Virus record (IMG/VR): IMGVR_UViG_2778261642_000006
DNA from: a virus
Lineage: Duplodnaviria > Heunggongvirae > Uroviricota > Caudoviricetes
Direction: 5' to 3' (one strand)
Length of the DNA: 42,980 bases
In this document: positions 11,554-19,768 of the stretch, piece by piece
Layout: every line of letters begins with the position of its first letter
Position numbering within the stretch: position 1 is the stretch's first letter
Notes under the pieces: model-generated
The model's database searches: none
What the model was told of the DNA's origin: nothing
The model's input: only the letters and a program-made list of their open reading frames with translations
Made by a program: the position numbers and the translations under genes

Positions 11554-12501
11554 ATGAGCAATACAGCAAAAATCTACGATTTCAGCGCCGCACACGAGCG
11601 CAGGAGCAACAGGATGGAGAACCAGAAAACTGGTTACATTCCGTTGTACCGGAGCATTCTGAAACAGTCATGGGCGAAAGATGTTTATCTTCGCACCCTG
11701 TGGGAAAACCTTCTCCTGAATGCCGCCAGAAAGCCATACAAAGCGAATTTCAAAGGTCATGAATGGCATCTGCAACCCGGTCAACTGGTTGTGACAGCAG
11801 CTGATTTAGGTCTTCAGTTATGCGACAGGCATGGCAAGCCGGCAAGCCGTGATCAGGTTGAGCGGATGCTTCAGGTTTTTGTGAAAGAGGGGATGATCTC
11901 CATTGATGGAGAGAAGCAAAAAGGTCGTGTGATCACCATCACAAATTACCATGAATATGCTCAAAAAATGGACGATTCACCCGCACATGAAGCCGCACAA
12001 ACAACCGCACATGATGCCGCACATGATGAAGCCAGTAATGGCGCGGCATTCAGCGTACATGCCGCACATGAAAGCGCACATGAAGCCGCACAAACAACCG
12101 CACATCATGAACAAGAAGGTATTAACAAGAATATAAATAATACCCCCCTACCCCCCAATGGGGGAGGCGATGGGCAGGTTAAACCTGAACGTCGCAAGGC
12201 AGAACGCATCGACTACGAATCCTTCCTGAACGCCTACAACACCGAAGTCGGTGACAGACTTCCACACGCTGTTGCGGTCAACGAGAAACGCAAACGCCGC
12301 CTGAAGAAAATCATCCCGCAACTGAAAACGCCAAACGTGGACGGTTTCAGAGCGTATGTCAGGGCGTTTGTGCATCAGGCCAAGCCGTTTTACTTCGGAG
12401 ACAACGACACGGGCTGGGTGGCAGATTTTGATTACCTGCTGAGGGAGGATTCGTTAACGGGAGTTCGGGAAGGGAAGTTTGCAGACAGGGGGATTGCATG
12501 A
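11554..12501 (+). CDS. Replication initiator (lambda O / P22 gene 18 analogue)
   Basis: 315 aa; position after cII; contains the iteron array and its repeated [10 protein letters not shown] peptide; stop overlaps helicase start (ATGA). Confidence 0.75.
11975..12165. repeat. Putative origin of replication: CCGCACATGA-type iterons, AT-rich tract, C6/G5 inverted repeat
   Basis: At least 8 copies of (C)CGCACATGA(A/T)G within ~130 bp, then aagaatataaataata and cccccctaccccccaatggggga. Confidence 0.6.
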
Positions 12502-13874: not shown

Positions 13875-13900
13875 CCATCTACATCACTGAGCTAATAACA

Positions 13901-13930
13901 GGCCTGCTGGTAATCGCAGGCCTTTTTATT
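13901..13930 (+). terminator. Intrinsic terminator after the helicase (tR2-like)
   Basis: GGCCTGC-tggtaatc-GCAGGCC followed by TTTTTATTT. Confidence 0.7.
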
Positions 13931-14654: not shown

Positions 14655-15065
14655 ATGAAACAGACAATTTTCCTCAGGAGTAAGCAACAACAGCAAGCCG
14701 CAATCAACGCCATCCTCGCAACACCACTCGATAAAGACAAGCCAGTTACCATCCGCATTACTGACTACAAGCGCAACCTTGACCAGAACGCAAAATTTCA
14801 CGCGATGCTGGCGGATATCGCAAGTCAGGTTCAATGGTGCGGCAAATGGTTAAAACCAGAACAATGGAAGGTTTTGTTGATAAGCGGTCATGCAGTGGCT
14901 ACAAAGCAGGAAGCTGATGTTTTGCCCGGGCTTGAAGGCGAATACGTCAACATTCGCGAAAGCAGCGCGCAGATGAGTGTGAAGCGTATGGCAAGTCTGA
15001 TTGAGTACACGACAGCCTGGGCTATTGGTCAGGGTGTCAGATTTACCGACAGGAGGTATGAATGA
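14655..15065 (+). CDS. ninB: NinB recombination protein
   Basis: 136 aa from [11 protein letters not shown]…; …[27 protein letters not shown]… matches recalled lambda NinB pattern. Confidence 0.8.
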
Positions 15066-15238
15066 GGCGACAGCGACGAAGTTTCACCGACATCATCTGC
15101 GAAAACTGCAAATACCTTCCAACGAAACGCTCCAGAAATAAACGCAAGCCAATCCCAAAAGAATCTGACGTAAAAACCTTCAACTACACGGCTCACCTGT
15201 GGGATATCCGGTGGCTAAGACATCGTGCGAGGAAATGA
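15062..15238 (+). CDS. ninE: NinE
   Basis: Hand-translated 58 aa [58 protein letters not shown], near-identical to recalled lambda NinE; ATGA overlaps on both sides. Confidence 0.75.
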
Positions 15239-16224
15239 CGATGACTGCGTATTACAACGAAATAGATCCGTATGCAGCGCAATGGCTGCGTAACTTAATT
15301 GACGCTGGAGAAATTGCCCCCGGTTATGTAGATGAAAGGAGTATTGAAGATGTCACACCAGGTGATTTGCGAGGATTTACCCAGCACCACTTTTTTGCAG
15401 GAATCGGAGTTTGGAGCTATGCACTTAGAAAAGCAGGATGGCCAGACAACAAGAGTATCTGGACAGGAAGTTGCCCATGCCAACCTTTCAGCTCGGCAGG
15501 CAAAGGAAAAGGGGTTGATGACGAGCGGCACTTATGGCCGGCATTCTTCTGGCTTATTGAAAAATGCAATCCTGGCATCGTTATTGGCGAACAGGTTGCA
15601 AGCGCAGACGGCCTCGCTTGGCTCGACCTTGTACAAACTGACTTGGAAGGTGCGAACTACACCTCTGCAGGTACCGATATTTGCGCTGCGGGCTTCGGTT
15701 CTCCGCACATCAGGCAGCGATTGTATTGGGTGGCCTACTCCAACGACAAATATCAACTTTCAGCCAGAGACGCGCAGGGGAATTCAGAACCTATCTGGAT
15801 GCGTGAGACTAGCGGGATGGCAAACTCCTTTAGCGAACGATGCAACAGGTTCAACGCATTGCTACAGCGGAAAAGACAAGAGCGGAACCCCAAGAATCTG
15901 CTTGAAACTTCCCGGGACGGTGAAGCTATGTACCCATTACCGGTTAACGGCTTCTGGAGAGATGCAGACTGGCTTTACTGTAGAGATGAAAAATATCGTC
16001 CAGTTAGACCCGGCTCATTCCCGATGGTTAATGGCATTGCCAAAAGCTTGGGACGAGGCAAGTCCACACTGGGAAGAATGGCAAAGCGCAATCAAGATCA
16101 GCGAATTATTGGATATGGAAACGCAATCAATGCAGAAGTAGCAACGGCATTCGTGAAAGTTTGTATGGAGGTTGTTAATGCTTATCCCATCCCAATCCAT
16201 TCAATACCAGAAAGAAAGCGTTGA
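15235..16224 (+). CDS. DNA (cytosine-5)-methyltransferase, orphan
   Basis: Motif [12 protein letters not shown], catalytic PCQ ([16 protein letters not shown]), ENV-like region; no restriction endonuclease partner seen. Confidence 0.85.
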
Positions 16225-16354
16225 GCGGGCTTTAACGTGCGCTAACTGCGGTCAGAAGCTGCATGTGCTGGAAGTTCACGTGTGCTCCGATTGCTGCGCA
16301 GAACTGATGAGCGATCCGAATAGCTCGATGCACGAGGAAGAAGACGATGGCTAA
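16178..16354 (+). CDS. ninF: NinF
   Basis: 58 aa [66 protein letters not shown]; matches recalled lambda NinF. Confidence 0.75.
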   Translation: MLIPSQSIQYQKESVERALTCANCGQKLHVLEVHVCSDCCAELMSDPNSSMHEEEDDG

Positions 16355-16913
16355 ACCAGCGCGAAGACGATGTAACCGTAAAAGAGAAGATTTAACTGTT
16401 AAAAGGATATTTGAGTTACTAAGTTTCGATAAATCTACCGGGGTATTTAGATGGAAAGTTCCCACTCAGGGAAGGATAGCATTAAATAGTGTTGCTGGAA
16501 CTTTTGATTCCAACGGTTATTCAATGATCATGATAGATGGGCGTAGATATAAAACTCACATCTTAGTTTTTTACATAACTCATAATCGCTGGCCTGCTGG
16601 TCAAATTGACCACGTTAATGGAATTAGGACCGACAATAGGCCAGAAAATTTAAGAGAATGCCTGCCAATAGAAAATTCAAGAAATATAAGGATCCGAAAG
16701 AACAGCAAATCAGGTTGCAGAGGAGTTACTTGGCACAAACGACAGAAAAAATGGAATGTTAGGCTAGGTTTCCATGGCAAGAGTAAACACTTCGGATGCT
16801 TTGATGATCTGGAGTTAGCGGTACTAGTTGCTGAAGAAGCCCGAGATAAGTATTACGGTGATTTTTCCGGCAACGAAAGGAGCACTTATGCGAATCTATC
16901 GAAGGAAATGTAA
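16347..16913 (+). CDS. HNH endonuclease with AP2-like DNA-binding domain, apparently inserted at the ninG 5' end
   Basis: Begins MAKPARRRC (recalled NinG N-terminus) then HNH motifs (…[18 protein letters not shown]…) and AP2-like segment (…[31 protein letters not shown]…). Confidence 0.75.
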
Positions 16914-18342: not shown

Positions 18343-18851
18343 GAGAACTAAACCTCACCAAAGAGCAGCACGAGTGGCTGAATGGCTGGCTTGAACTGTG
18401 GGGAGCATGGGTTTATTCAGGTCGTCTGGAAAAGCGCATGAGCAGCGTAATAGCTAAGTTCATGGAGAGCGTAGAGCCGGGAAGAGTTATGACAAGGCCA
18501 ATGTGTAATGATGATGATGGAATGTTGATTTCTCAGGTCGTCGATTCCGTCATGTACATTGACAAGAAAGCCTTTGGCATCCTCCTCAGCTACTACGCTC
18601 ATGGTTCATCTAAGCGAGCAATTGCATCCTACTATCACGAGACTGCAAAGCCACGCAAGATGTGTGGGCGTGGTGGCGAGGGATGGAGAAAACCTTCACT
18701 GGCAACCTGTAGAAACGAAATTGACGATATCCTGAAAGCGTCATTATTTGTTTTGTACCAACCAATGAAAAATGCTTTCAAAATGCGTAAACGTGTTGAG
18801 AAAGTTAAGCATGTTGCTGTTAAAAGTCTTGACATGCAATTAGCCATTTAG
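18333..18851 (+). CDS. Q: Late-gene antiterminator Q (non-lambda Q family)
   Basis: 172 aa; directly upstream of pR'-like promoter and tR'; composition resembles the Q family of phage 21/82 type; mainly positional. Confidence 0.6.
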
Positions 18852-18858
18852 CCATAAT
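18829..18858 (+). promoter_or_regulatory. Late promoter pR'-like (TTGACA, 17-18 nt spacer, CATAAT)
   Basis: gtcTTGACAtgcaattagccatttagcCATAATat at the 3' end of Q, ~45 nt upstream of the tR' hairpin. Confidence 0.6.
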
Positions 18859-18898: not shown

Positions 18899-18924
18899 AA
18901 GCCCACCTCCTGTGGGCTTTTTTG
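18899..18924 (+). terminator. tR'-like intrinsic terminator
   Basis: AAGCCCAC-ctcct-GTGGGCTT followed by TTTTTTGC. Confidence 0.75.
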
Positions 18925-19045: not shown

Positions 19046-19558
19046 ATGAAAGAAATAAAATTAACGCCAGAAATGGTGCTTTCTGTTGTTGATTACAATC
19101 CATCGTCAGGCGACTTTCACTGGAGATGGAGGCAGGGGAGAGAGAGGACCACTTTGACATGGAACTCTCGTTTTGCTTTCAAGAAATGCTCATCAATAAA
19201 TTCTGATGGGTATTTAATGATTATGATTAATGGTAAAGCATACCCTGCTCACAGACTGGCATGGTTGATTGTTTATGGCACCATGCCCGATGGTTTTATT
19301 GATCACATCAACAGGGTAAGAACAGATAACCGGATATCAAATCTTCGTCTTGTCACTCATTCCGAAAATATGCAAAACAGGAAAATTCAGAAGAATAATA
19401 AATCTGGATACCGTGGCGTGTCTTGGGATGCTAAGTACGGGAAATGGAGAGCAAGAATTAATGCGTCTGGAAAGTGTATTAACCTTGGATACCATGACAC
19501 TGCCGAACTTGCCGCTGCGGCTTTTGAGGCAGCCAGAATGAAATATCATACCGTTTAA
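19046..19558 (+). CDS. HNH endonuclease with AP2-like domain (paralogue of 16347..16913)
   Basis: 170 aa; shares HNH block (…IDHINRVRTDNRISNLR…) and AP2-like block (…SGYRGVSWDAKYGKWRARINASGKCINLGYH…) with the ninG-associated copy. Confidence 0.8.
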   Translation: MKEIKLTPEMVLSVVDYNPSSGDFHWRWRQGRERTTLTWNSRFAFKKCSSINSDGYLMIMINGKAYPAHRLAWLIVYGTMPDGFIDHINRVRTDNRISNLRLVTHSENMQNRKIQKNNKSGYRGVSWDAKYGKWRARINASGKCINLGYHDTAELAAAAFEAARMKYHTV

Positions 19559-19612: not shown

Positions 19613-19687
19613 GGGTCAGTCGTATAAAGGTCATTACGGAAGGCTGTTAACCTTCTTATCGTGGTTCGAGTCCACGCTGTCCCGCCA
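19613..19687 (+). tRNA. tRNA-like gene, anticodon GUU (Asn) by manual folding
   Basis: Acceptor GGGTCAG/CTGTCCC (1 mismatch), weak D-stem, anticodon arm GAAGG-CTGTTAA-CCTTC, T-arm CGTGG-TTCGAGT-CCACG, discriminator G, CCA. Confidence 0.5.
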
Positions 19688-19692
19688 AATAT

Positions 19693-19768
19693 GCTGGTTT
19701 AGCTCCAATGGTAGAGCAGTCGCCTTGTAAGCGAATGGGTAGCGGTTCAAGTCCGTTAACCAGCACCA
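19693..19768 (+). tRNA. tRNA, anticodon UGU (Thr) by manual folding
   Basis: 76 nt; acceptor GCTGGTT/AACCAGC, D-arm GCTC…GAGC, anticodon loop CTTGTAA, T-loop TTCAAGT, discriminator A, CCA. Confidence 0.6.

Follow-up and report, generated by a model that had tools for sequence, protein, structure and literature searches.

The window analysed here is the whole 42,980-nucleotide stretch held as IMG/VR record IMGVR_UViG_2778261642_000006, a P22-like Escherichia coli prophage that adjoins ybhC and carries an integrase and a P22-like structural half. Between ninE and ninF, an earlier note based on the sequence had placed a DNA cytosine-5 methyltransferase (C5-MTase), and that is where our analysis finds one. 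The open reading frame (ORF), which we call alpha, occupies positions 15235–16224 of the plus strand, from the ATG at 15235 to the TGA at 16222–16224. It encodes 329 aa, matches the Pfam family PF00145 and keeps its catalytic residues invariant. Nested wholly within alpha, in the +1 frame, lies a second ORF, here called beta (Table 1). Because alpha contains this conserved nested gene, the annotated ORF is, judging from its sequence, probably the catalytic subunit only. We propose that the locus is a dual-coding gene that specifies a two-polypeptide orphan phage C5-MTase of the M.EcoHK31I type, a reading that we consider reasonably probable.

Table 1. Features of the methylase locus and its surroundings, in order of position in the window.
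Feature	Position	Strand	Basis or remark
Terminator-like hairpin upstream of the nin genes	13900–13923	+	Consensus scan; putative delayed-early role by lambda biology
ninE	15062–15238	+	PF05322, E = 4e-43; stop overlaps the first alpha ATG as ATGA
Alpha ORF, catalytic subunit of C5-MTase (probable)	15235–16224	+	329 aa; likely start 15241
Alpha residues 6–40, motif II-like and motif III-like, ahead of motif I	15250–15354	+	hhalign, TIGR00675, Pfam swap test
Beta Shine-Dalgarno sequence AAAGGAG	15335–15341	+	Alpha codons E34-R35-S36 (rare AGG Arg, AGT Ser)
Beta ORF, proposed DNA-recognition / motif IX subunit	15350–16141	+	+1 frame, 263 aa, nested wholly in alpha
Alpha residues 53–69, motif I (S-adenosylmethionine (AdoMet) loop and helix A), between III and IV	15391–15441	+	MAFFT, hhalign
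Alpha motif IV, catalytic Cys82	15466–15492	+	Invariant P81 C82 Q83; aligned to HhaI PCQ (P80-C81)
Beta residues 45–121, conserved, dual-coded with alpha motifs IV–VIII	15482–15712	+	Invariant or near-invariant beta columns; ratio of nonsynonymous to synonymous substitution rates (dN/dS) 0.4–0.6
Alpha motif VI, GEQV (EQV for ENV)	15586–15597	+	Invariant in alignments
Alpha motif VIII	15706–15735	+	Aligned to HhaI QKRERIYMI
Beta W-x-T-P modules: GWPTP 15728–15742, AGWQTP 15812–15829	15728–15829	+	1–6 modules per homologue
Alpha residues 172–236, low-complexity spacer, open but unconserved as protein	15748–15942	+	Frame-shadow of beta modules
Alpha residues 237–263, conserved block, dual-coded with beta C-terminal region (beta 197–225)	15943–16023	+	~61% family identity
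Beta residues 218–236, motif-IX-like element	16001–16057	+	Conserved in 126/148 homologues
Alpha motif X, Asn296 kept	16114–16155	+	G295 and N296 invariant; helix predicted local distance difference test (pLDDT) ~91
ninF	16178–16354	+	PF05810; ATG start as in the RefSeq annotation of the identical locus
Alpha 13-codon read-through tail and stop	16183–16224	+	3'-end alignment of relatives L001–L007 and L042; P0001 ends ...VVNA
HNH_3+AP2 homing-type endonuclease	16347–16913	+	Pfam; phrog_99, E = 2e-71; outside the methylase unit

Alpha matches PF00145 with 52.4 bits (E = 7e-14; cut-off 22), the alignment being limited to residues 75–202, which hold motifs IV–VIII and correspond to profile positions 64–196 of 324. 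Against the NCBIfam dcm model TIGR00675 it scores 42 bits, under the cut-off of 100.65, and it matches phrog_363, labelled 'DNA methyltransferase', over its full length (E = 6e-92). The best match among solved structures is M.HhaI, and aligning alpha with the HhaI family by hhalign gives E = 8.5e-15 across residues 39–171. Checking the catalytic residues for loss by alignment found them intact and invariant in the family, the invariant set comprising F54-x-G56-x-G58, P81-C82-Q83, E119-Q120-V121, R160-x-R162 and G295-N296. The glutamine of the EQV in motif VI recurs in 243 of the 244 relatives having the motif. The catalytic half shows dN/dS values of 0.07–0.22, and identity over the first 85 residues is 75–88% between clusters whose overall divergence exceeds 50%. 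By these sequence features alpha is a C5-MTase core with intact catalytic residues.

The chemistry of this core should be ordinary methyl transfer, because the Asn of motif X, which is replaced by Arg in CmoX for binding of carboxy-S-adenosylmethionine (Cx-SAM), is invariant here. CmoX is likewise phage-borne and of the C5-MTase fold, and is defined by that Arg at the position of HhaI N304 (PMC12783734). A CmoX-like enzyme in the prophage would transfer carboxymethyl from Cx-SAM, made by E. coli CmoA, instead of methyl. We give this very little credence, as motif X retains Asn in 196 of 200 relatives, and neither CmoA nor a ligase was seen as a neighbour among the surveyed loci. The motif X Arg and the CmoA/CmoY partners that distinguish CmoX are both missing here.

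Alpha shares with M.HhaI and other monomeric PF00145 enzymes the fold and the FxGxG, PC, motif VI Glu, RxR and GN signatures. Enzymes of the M.HhaI type are single chains with collinear motifs I–X and a target recognition domain (TRD) between motifs VIII and IX. Unlike these, alpha has a displaced motif I, EQV for ENV, and no TRD or motif IX in the catalytic chain: neither is recognisable in the alpha frame, and no Pfam alignment extends past profile position 196. The spacer that follows motif VIII (residues of about 172–238) has pLDDT values below 50 in both AlphaFold2 models. The second model, built from a more diverse alignment, improved the catalytic half and left residues 174–296 at low confidence, and no confident small domain was predicted in alpha. 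The spacer can be aligned in 99 of 233 relatives, with 36% identity, varies from 50 to 278 aa in length across the family and shows dN/dS values of 0.75–2.45. Its recurring G-[MLV]-[AG]-[ND] is the W-x-T-P of beta read one base earlier; M195-A-N-S-F-S-E-R of alpha, for example, is W157-Q-T-P-L-A-N-D of beta at one-base offset. Residues 237–263 have low entropy in all three codon phases. Over the corresponding nucleotides (15943–16023) both frames are strongly conserved together, and beta reads RLT..GEM.TG....QL.PAHS.

The list of ORFs contains a +1 ORF of 269 codons at 15332–16141, inside alpha. This frame is open in all 148 homologous genes, with a median of 299 codons, against a median of 54 in the +2 frame. 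Resampling the synonymous codons of alpha residues 40–300 with the phage's own codon usage gave an expectation of 5.8 stops in the +1 frame, but the actual gene contains none there (P = 0.0008); the +2 control frame holds 16 stops against 15.9 expected. The same depletion is seen in 30 divergent homologues that are less than 62% identical to one another, 29 of which have no +1 stop where 2–10 are expected (summed log10 P = -65), with the +2 control roughly at expectation. Given the beta protein, 2–8 stops would be expected in the alpha spacer, which is stop-free in all 30 (summed log10 P = -56); kinship among the homologues makes these summed values overstate independence. Stops are thus depleted both in the +1 frame and in the alpha spacer, and we therefore conclude that selection keeps both frames open.

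Codon-phase entropy gives a map of where each frame is constrained. The alpha wobble position dominates variation at alpha residues 1–110 and 281–320, both wobbles are damped at 111–160 and 241–270, and the beta wobble dominates at 171–240 and 261–280. Comparing beta residues 126–195 with those of a relative that is 86% identical (L008) yields a dN of 0.02 and a dS of 0.77, hence a dN/dS of 0.03, while the alpha frame there has a value of 2.45. Beta residues 1–45 are unconstrained (dN/dS of at least 1). Among 124 non-redundant homologues, at least 95% have their last upstream +1 stop no further into alpha than residue 40.

An unexpressed +1 ORF, whose openness and conservation are a by-product of the constraint on alpha or of composition, would explain why RefSeq annotates alpha alone in the two E. 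coli loci examined, and why Pfam does not recognise beta. Proteins in the beta frame have come out of gene calling in 3,904 clusters, and almost all of them lack a name or are called 'hypothetical'. However, such a by-product is hard to reconcile with stop depletion in the +1 frame while the +2 control behaves as expected, with the dN/dS of 0.03 in the beta frame where alpha is unconstrained, or with a ribosome-binding site that covaries with the beta start at sites synonymous in alpha, and we consider it highly improbable. From its pattern of conservation, beta is very likely a real, selected gene.

The signals at the start of beta bear on how it might be translated. The beta ATG at 15350 sits 8 nt after AAAGGAG, a Shine-Dalgarno sequence written into alpha codons. 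Of the 103 homologues with the beta ATG, 83 have GGAG; of the 29 without this ATG, none does. AGG is used at the alpha R35 site in 44% of homologues, compared with 9% at other Arg codons of the same genes, and AGY at the S36 site in 80%, compared with 45% for Ser elsewhere. As the sites involved are silent in alpha, this covariation of GGAG with the ATG favours an independent start for beta over frameshifting. Programmed frameshifting would instead produce one fused enzyme, read in frame 0, then in +1 through the TRD and motif IX, and possibly back for motif X. Frame-switched products do occur in the databases, among 13 of 149 cluster representatives. P0381, a metagenomic product of 350 aa with 4 member sequences, runs in one continuous frame through exactly the alpha N-terminus, then beta, then the alpha motif X; P0384 and P0385 resemble it, and P0136 is also frame-switched. 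P0381 lacks alpha motif VIII and has a lower Pfam score. Fusions of this type may reflect indels introduced in assembly, or they may be true 'de-overlapped' variants. As an account of the family, frameshifting is very unlikely, since the Shine-Dalgarno sequence occurs only with beta's own ATG and all 30 divergent homologues keep the alpha spacer free of stops, something that frameshifting does not require. Moreover, the stretch that codes for alpha motifs IV–VIII also codes for the conserved start of beta, so that a fusion loses either motif VIII or the conserved N-terminal region of beta; when beta-frame sequence takes the place of alpha motif VIII, the Pfam score falls from 52.6 to 34.8 bits. 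Two shifts per gene would be needed, and the database fusions are most simply sequencing or assembly indels.

Across its homologues beta has the conserved elements GSTLY.LTWK..TP and LRAS..RTS, and units of the form (A)GW.TP.A.D occur in 140 of 148. Its matches in PHROGs are phrog_1008 (E = 6e-23) and phrog_31772, families that carry the label DNA methyltransferase; single-sequence and profile searches of Pfam, NCBIfam and the PDB returned nothing meaningful. When the beta profile is compared with the HhaI family by hhalign, the top match falls on HhaI residues 274–292, which is motif IX, at a non-significant E of 0.2–0.26 (reversed control 0.77). Given that alpha is without TRD and motif IX, that beta ends in a motif-IX-like element and that M.EcoHK31I offers an analogy, we propose that the two chains may assemble, and that beta is, with somewhat better than even chances, the recognition and motif IX subunit.

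The earlier note had also described the methylase as an orphan, without an adjacent restriction endonuclease, and this too is borne out. We surveyed 151 related loci, taken from viral contigs and species-representative genomes, by calling their ORFs and clustering the neighbours of the methylase. Among genes up to two positions away from it, no neighbour family is present in more than 13% of these loci, and no restriction-nuclease-like recurrent neighbour was found in them; the neighbours that do recur are replication proteins, N6-adenine methylases of the DPPW and DPPY types, a resolvase resembling RuvC and an SNF2 helicase. In the prophage itself an HNH-family nuclease is encoded one gene downstream (16347–16913), and the methylase might be the modification half of a restriction–modification (R-M) pair with it. 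The nuclease, however, has the HNH_3+AP2 architecture of homing-type enzymes, with a second such copy at 19046–19558, and the methylase and the neighbouring nuclease gene are each found without the other: strains K56-43-un and YP3 have an identical methylase and no HNH-AP2 neighbour, and many prophages have the HNH gene without the methylase. An R-M pair is thus scarcely credible. The HNH-AP2 gene looks like a recent mobile insertion, because prophages that match in other respects lack it. At its 3' end it runs into the ninG ORF as called from TTG 16828, and the second copy lies downstream of the PR'-like terminator described below.

A consensus scan found no plus-strand promoter-like site before the methylase gene. 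The gene lies in the nin operon, between the hairpin at 13900–13923 and Q, and it either touches or overlaps the gene on each side. At the end of Q, a PR'-like promoter at 18829–18858 (TTGACA-18-CATAAT) is near the sigma-70 consensus, with 11 of 12 matches, and is followed by a strong terminator-like hairpin at 18899–18919, the expected PR'/tR' arrangement for late control. By lambda logic, the want of a promoter of its own and the position in the nin operon suggest that the methylase should be silent under repressor control and expressed as a delayed-early gene after antitermination. This setting does not bear out an epigenetic role in the lysogen, which the earlier note had offered as one of two possible functions. 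The other, protective methylation against host restriction, fits the position of the gene, and an orphan, protective enzyme is a reasonable reading.

From this arrangement we infer how alpha and beta may assemble, what beta would recognise, when the enzyme would be made and how it would protect the phage. Alpha would form the AdoMet-binding and catalytic core, with motifs II, III, I, IV, VI, VIII and X, and its spacer between VIII and X would need only to stay open. Beta would start at AAAGGAG-N8-ATG, within the codons of alpha motif III, and consist of a conserved N-proximal region, a variable count of W-x-T-P-x-A-x-D modules and a motif-IX-like C-terminus. It would bind alpha and supply the small domain, that is, target recognition and motif IX, as in M.EcoHK31I, with the modular W-x-T-P region reading the target. 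The target cytosine would then be flipped, Cys82 would attack C6, and the methyl group would pass from AdoMet to C5. The enzyme would be produced only after antitermination, in lytic growth or upon induction, and would methylate replicating phage DNA, so that the progeny withstand restriction in the next host.

Several points weigh against this proposal. None of 55 beta sequences has a match in Pfam, nor has the beta profile one in the PDB, and chimeras with beta spliced between alpha motifs VIII and X showed no Pfam gain on motifs IX–X. The fit of the beta C-terminus to motif IX is at the level of pattern, and both the translation of beta and its binding to alpha are predictions. The promoter and terminator calls are consensus matches. 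Protection is not tied to any particular restriction system, and 5-methylcytosine could expose the phage to McrA, McrBC or Mrr. Finally, alpha residues 237–263 could be a minimal recognition element, and alpha alone might be active. In that case alpha would be a complete minimal orphan C5-MTase, with the block at 237–293 recognising the target, and beta would have another job, for example as a DNA-binding accessory or an anti-defence protein. Alpha does hold every catalytic motif plus motif X, its 237–263 block is conserved with codon-phase variation of the alpha type, and beta is without a significant methyltransferase match in Pfam or the PDB. However, we know of no C5-MTase that functions without TRD and motif IX in some polypeptide, and AlphaFold2 places no confident small domain in alpha. 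Beta, on the other hand, ends in a motif IX pattern, its best hhalign match lies exactly on HhaI motif IX, PHROGs labels its families methyltransferase, and M.EcoHK31I sets a precedent (PMC2836561). A self-sufficient alpha is thus unlikely, and we retain the two-chain enzyme as our preferred reading.

M.EcoHK31I has its beta gene completely enclosed by the alpha gene, in a different frame; beta carries motif IX, and both chains are required; the first 42 residues of beta are dispensable, and alpha is said to contain the TRD (PMC2836561). The prophage locus shares the nested two-chain design, and the dispensable beta start of M.EcoHK31I is paralleled by the unconstrained beta residues 1–45. There are also clear differences, as far as a comparison with the published description goes. 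Whereas M.EcoHK31I is the heterodimeric methylase of a Type II R-M pair (YGGCCR), the prophage enzyme is an orphan; its alpha has no recognisable TRD and the motif order II-III-I-IV, and its beta is longer (263 aa) and has W-x-T-P modules. The subunits of M.AquI come from adjacent, non-nested genes, with motifs IX and X in the second subunit. The likeness to M.AquI lies in the division of the enzyme into a catalytic part and a part with the TRD and motifs IX–X (PMC5944983). M.BatI of a Bacillus anthracis prophage is, like the present enzyme, a prophage-borne orphan; it is silent in the lysogen, as is predicted here, and active when expressed; it differs in belonging to another sequence family and in being a single batIM product, with no nested gene mentioned (PMC8936443). 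A nested two-chain C5-MTase is known from M.EcoHK31I, and the present locus would represent a very large phage family of this design with a rearranged cofactor half.

This rearrangement concerns the order of motifs in alpha, which is II-III-I-IV-VI-VIII-X and thus not collinear from I through X. Motif II precedes I, and I precedes IV, in all 221 relatives where the three motifs could be located. The alpha N-terminus resembles HhaI VYSNEWDKYAQEVYEMN (motif II); hhalign aligns alpha residues 6–16 separately to HhaI 37–47, and the TIGR00675 alignment of alpha begins at profile position 25, which is motif II. In MAFFT and hhalign alignments the FxGxG loop of alpha falls on HhaI 15–33 (motif I), with a 35-residue gap at HhaI motifs II–III. 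Native alpha 1–171 scores 49.6 bits against PF00145, with an alignment from motif IV only. Moving residues 43–76 before residues 1–42 raises the score to 63.1 bits and gives a collinear alignment over profile positions 5–164; the deletion and shuffle controls together score 48–57 bits, among them 50.7 and 52.3 bits for constructs with either segment deleted and 51–57 bits for those with either segment shuffled. Scored against HhaI from the PDB, the swapped construct reaches 41.6 bits, up from 31.5, and aligns over HhaI 11–174. A single-sequence phmmer swap test against HhaI gave small differences only, the comparison with the Pfam profile being the more telling; the N-terminal 47 residues and the motif I segment, each taken alone, were too short to score against Pfam or the PDB.

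The predicted secondary structure of alpha (E5–8, H12–23, E30–33, h42–45, E50–54, H57–66, E75–79) reads beta2-alphaB-beta3-turn-beta1-alphaA-beta4 in the AlphaFold2 model. It is the invariance of all cofactor-binding residues that suggests the three-dimensional strand order. Natural exceptions to the I–X order are whole-protein circular permutations with motifs IX–X first, as in M.BssHII, M.Alw26I, M2.Eco31I, M.Esp3I and M2.BsaI (PMC5944983). Alpha departs from the I–X order as these enzymes do. However, whereas they are circularly permuted with IX–X in front, alpha has two adjacent segments of its AdoMet half swapped in a non-circular manner. The circularly permuted type H class was considered for alpha and rejected, since motif X is C-terminal (criterion from PMC5944983). 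By its motif order, the local II-III-I swap in alpha is different from the published circular permutations. This type of rearrangement is absent from the listed natural C5-MTase permutations (PMC5944983) and bears on the evolution of the fold.

The genes around the methylase are those of a lambdoid nin region, assigned with Pfam at E-values from 1e-14 to 1e-85. NinB (PF05772, E = 4e-55) and NinE lie on the 5' side, and NinF, the HNH_3+AP2 protein, NinG, NinH, a phosphatase and Q follow in this order on the 3' side. The real start of alpha is likely the second ATG, at 15241. In the region 15229–15243, a GAGGAA lies 6 nt upstream of it, a better spacing than at the ATG at 15235, which the GAGGAA abuts directly; RefSeq uses 15241 as well, and the family N-terminus MTAYYNEID agrees. 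At the 3' end, the overlap of alpha with the start of ninF, described in the earlier note, stands and measures 47 nt, counted from the ninF ATG at 16178. It reaches this length only because the TAG that ends alpha in close relatives at 16183–16185, giving a ATGCTTAG overlap of 8 nt with ninF, reads TAT here and in strain K56-43-un, by which alpha gains 13 residues. The same single G-to-T change turns residue 3 of NinF from Ser to Ile. This methylase allele is rare, being present in 11 of 5,426 complete E. coli genomes, in every case in the order ninE-methylase-ninF.

The remainder of the window has ordinary lambdoid and P22-like content. A replication-protein ORF at 11554–12501 contains a His/Ala-rich repeat stretch, with long shadow ORFs on both strands across the repeat. 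Genes for tRNA-Asn (GTT) and tRNA-Thr (TGT) lie at 19613–19768 on the plus strand, downstream of Q and the PR'-like promoter.

The family to which the locus belongs is large. The N-terminal module of alpha recurs in at least 4,280 clusters (50% identity) at E ≤ 1e-3, 877 of them at E ≤ 1e-30. The family ranges over Gamma-, Beta-, Alpha-, Delta- and Epsilonproteobacteria and beyond. Searching with tblastn located beta in 223 phage genomes, in every case under a methylase annotation; in epsilon15, K1ind2 and Rhodobacter phage RcPeripeteia the annotated gene again has beta in its +1 frame. Among five phage loci sampled across the ranking down to the weakest matches, no single-frame relative with a beta-type region was found: four have beta in the +1 frame of the methylase coding sequence, and in the fifth, Cy-LDV1, a short match lies mostly outside the methyltransferase coding sequence. 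In K1ind2 (GU196280, positions 943–1740 of our locus L163), GenBank names the nested +1 ORF a 'putative Mte8-like protein', an annotation label whose origin was not traced in the literature. We found no description of the nested gene or of the motif swap for this methylase family in the literature.

Taken together, these observations incline us, by a little, to regard the family as a very large, phage-borne group of orphan C5-MTases encoded by two overprinted genes, in which the number of W-x-T-P modules may set specificity. It would take in epsilon15, the kagunaviruses K1ind1 and K1ind2, Rhodobacter phages and related E. coli prophages, with a specificity subunit encoded over about 260–300 codons of the +1 frame and a catalytic subunit with the non-circular II-III-I swap. 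The number of modules in beta is linked to the length of the alpha spacer, which suggests a simple route to a change of specificity in the restriction arms race.

If beta is the recognition subunit, then cloning, expressing or annotating alpha alone misrepresents these enzymes. Gene callers and REBASE-style predictions that take alpha as the whole enzyme would be systematically incomplete, with standard annotation overlooking the arrangement in thousands of phages. Both frames would have to be considered when 5-methylcytosine motifs from methylomes are assigned to genes in Enterobacteria and in many other Proteobacteria. Among same-strand gene overlaps of bacterial viruses, the pair would also rank with the longest and the most widespread. 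With about 790 nt of deeply conserved same-strand overlap, and selection that alternates between the frames, it is useful for studying how two proteins share one coding sequence.

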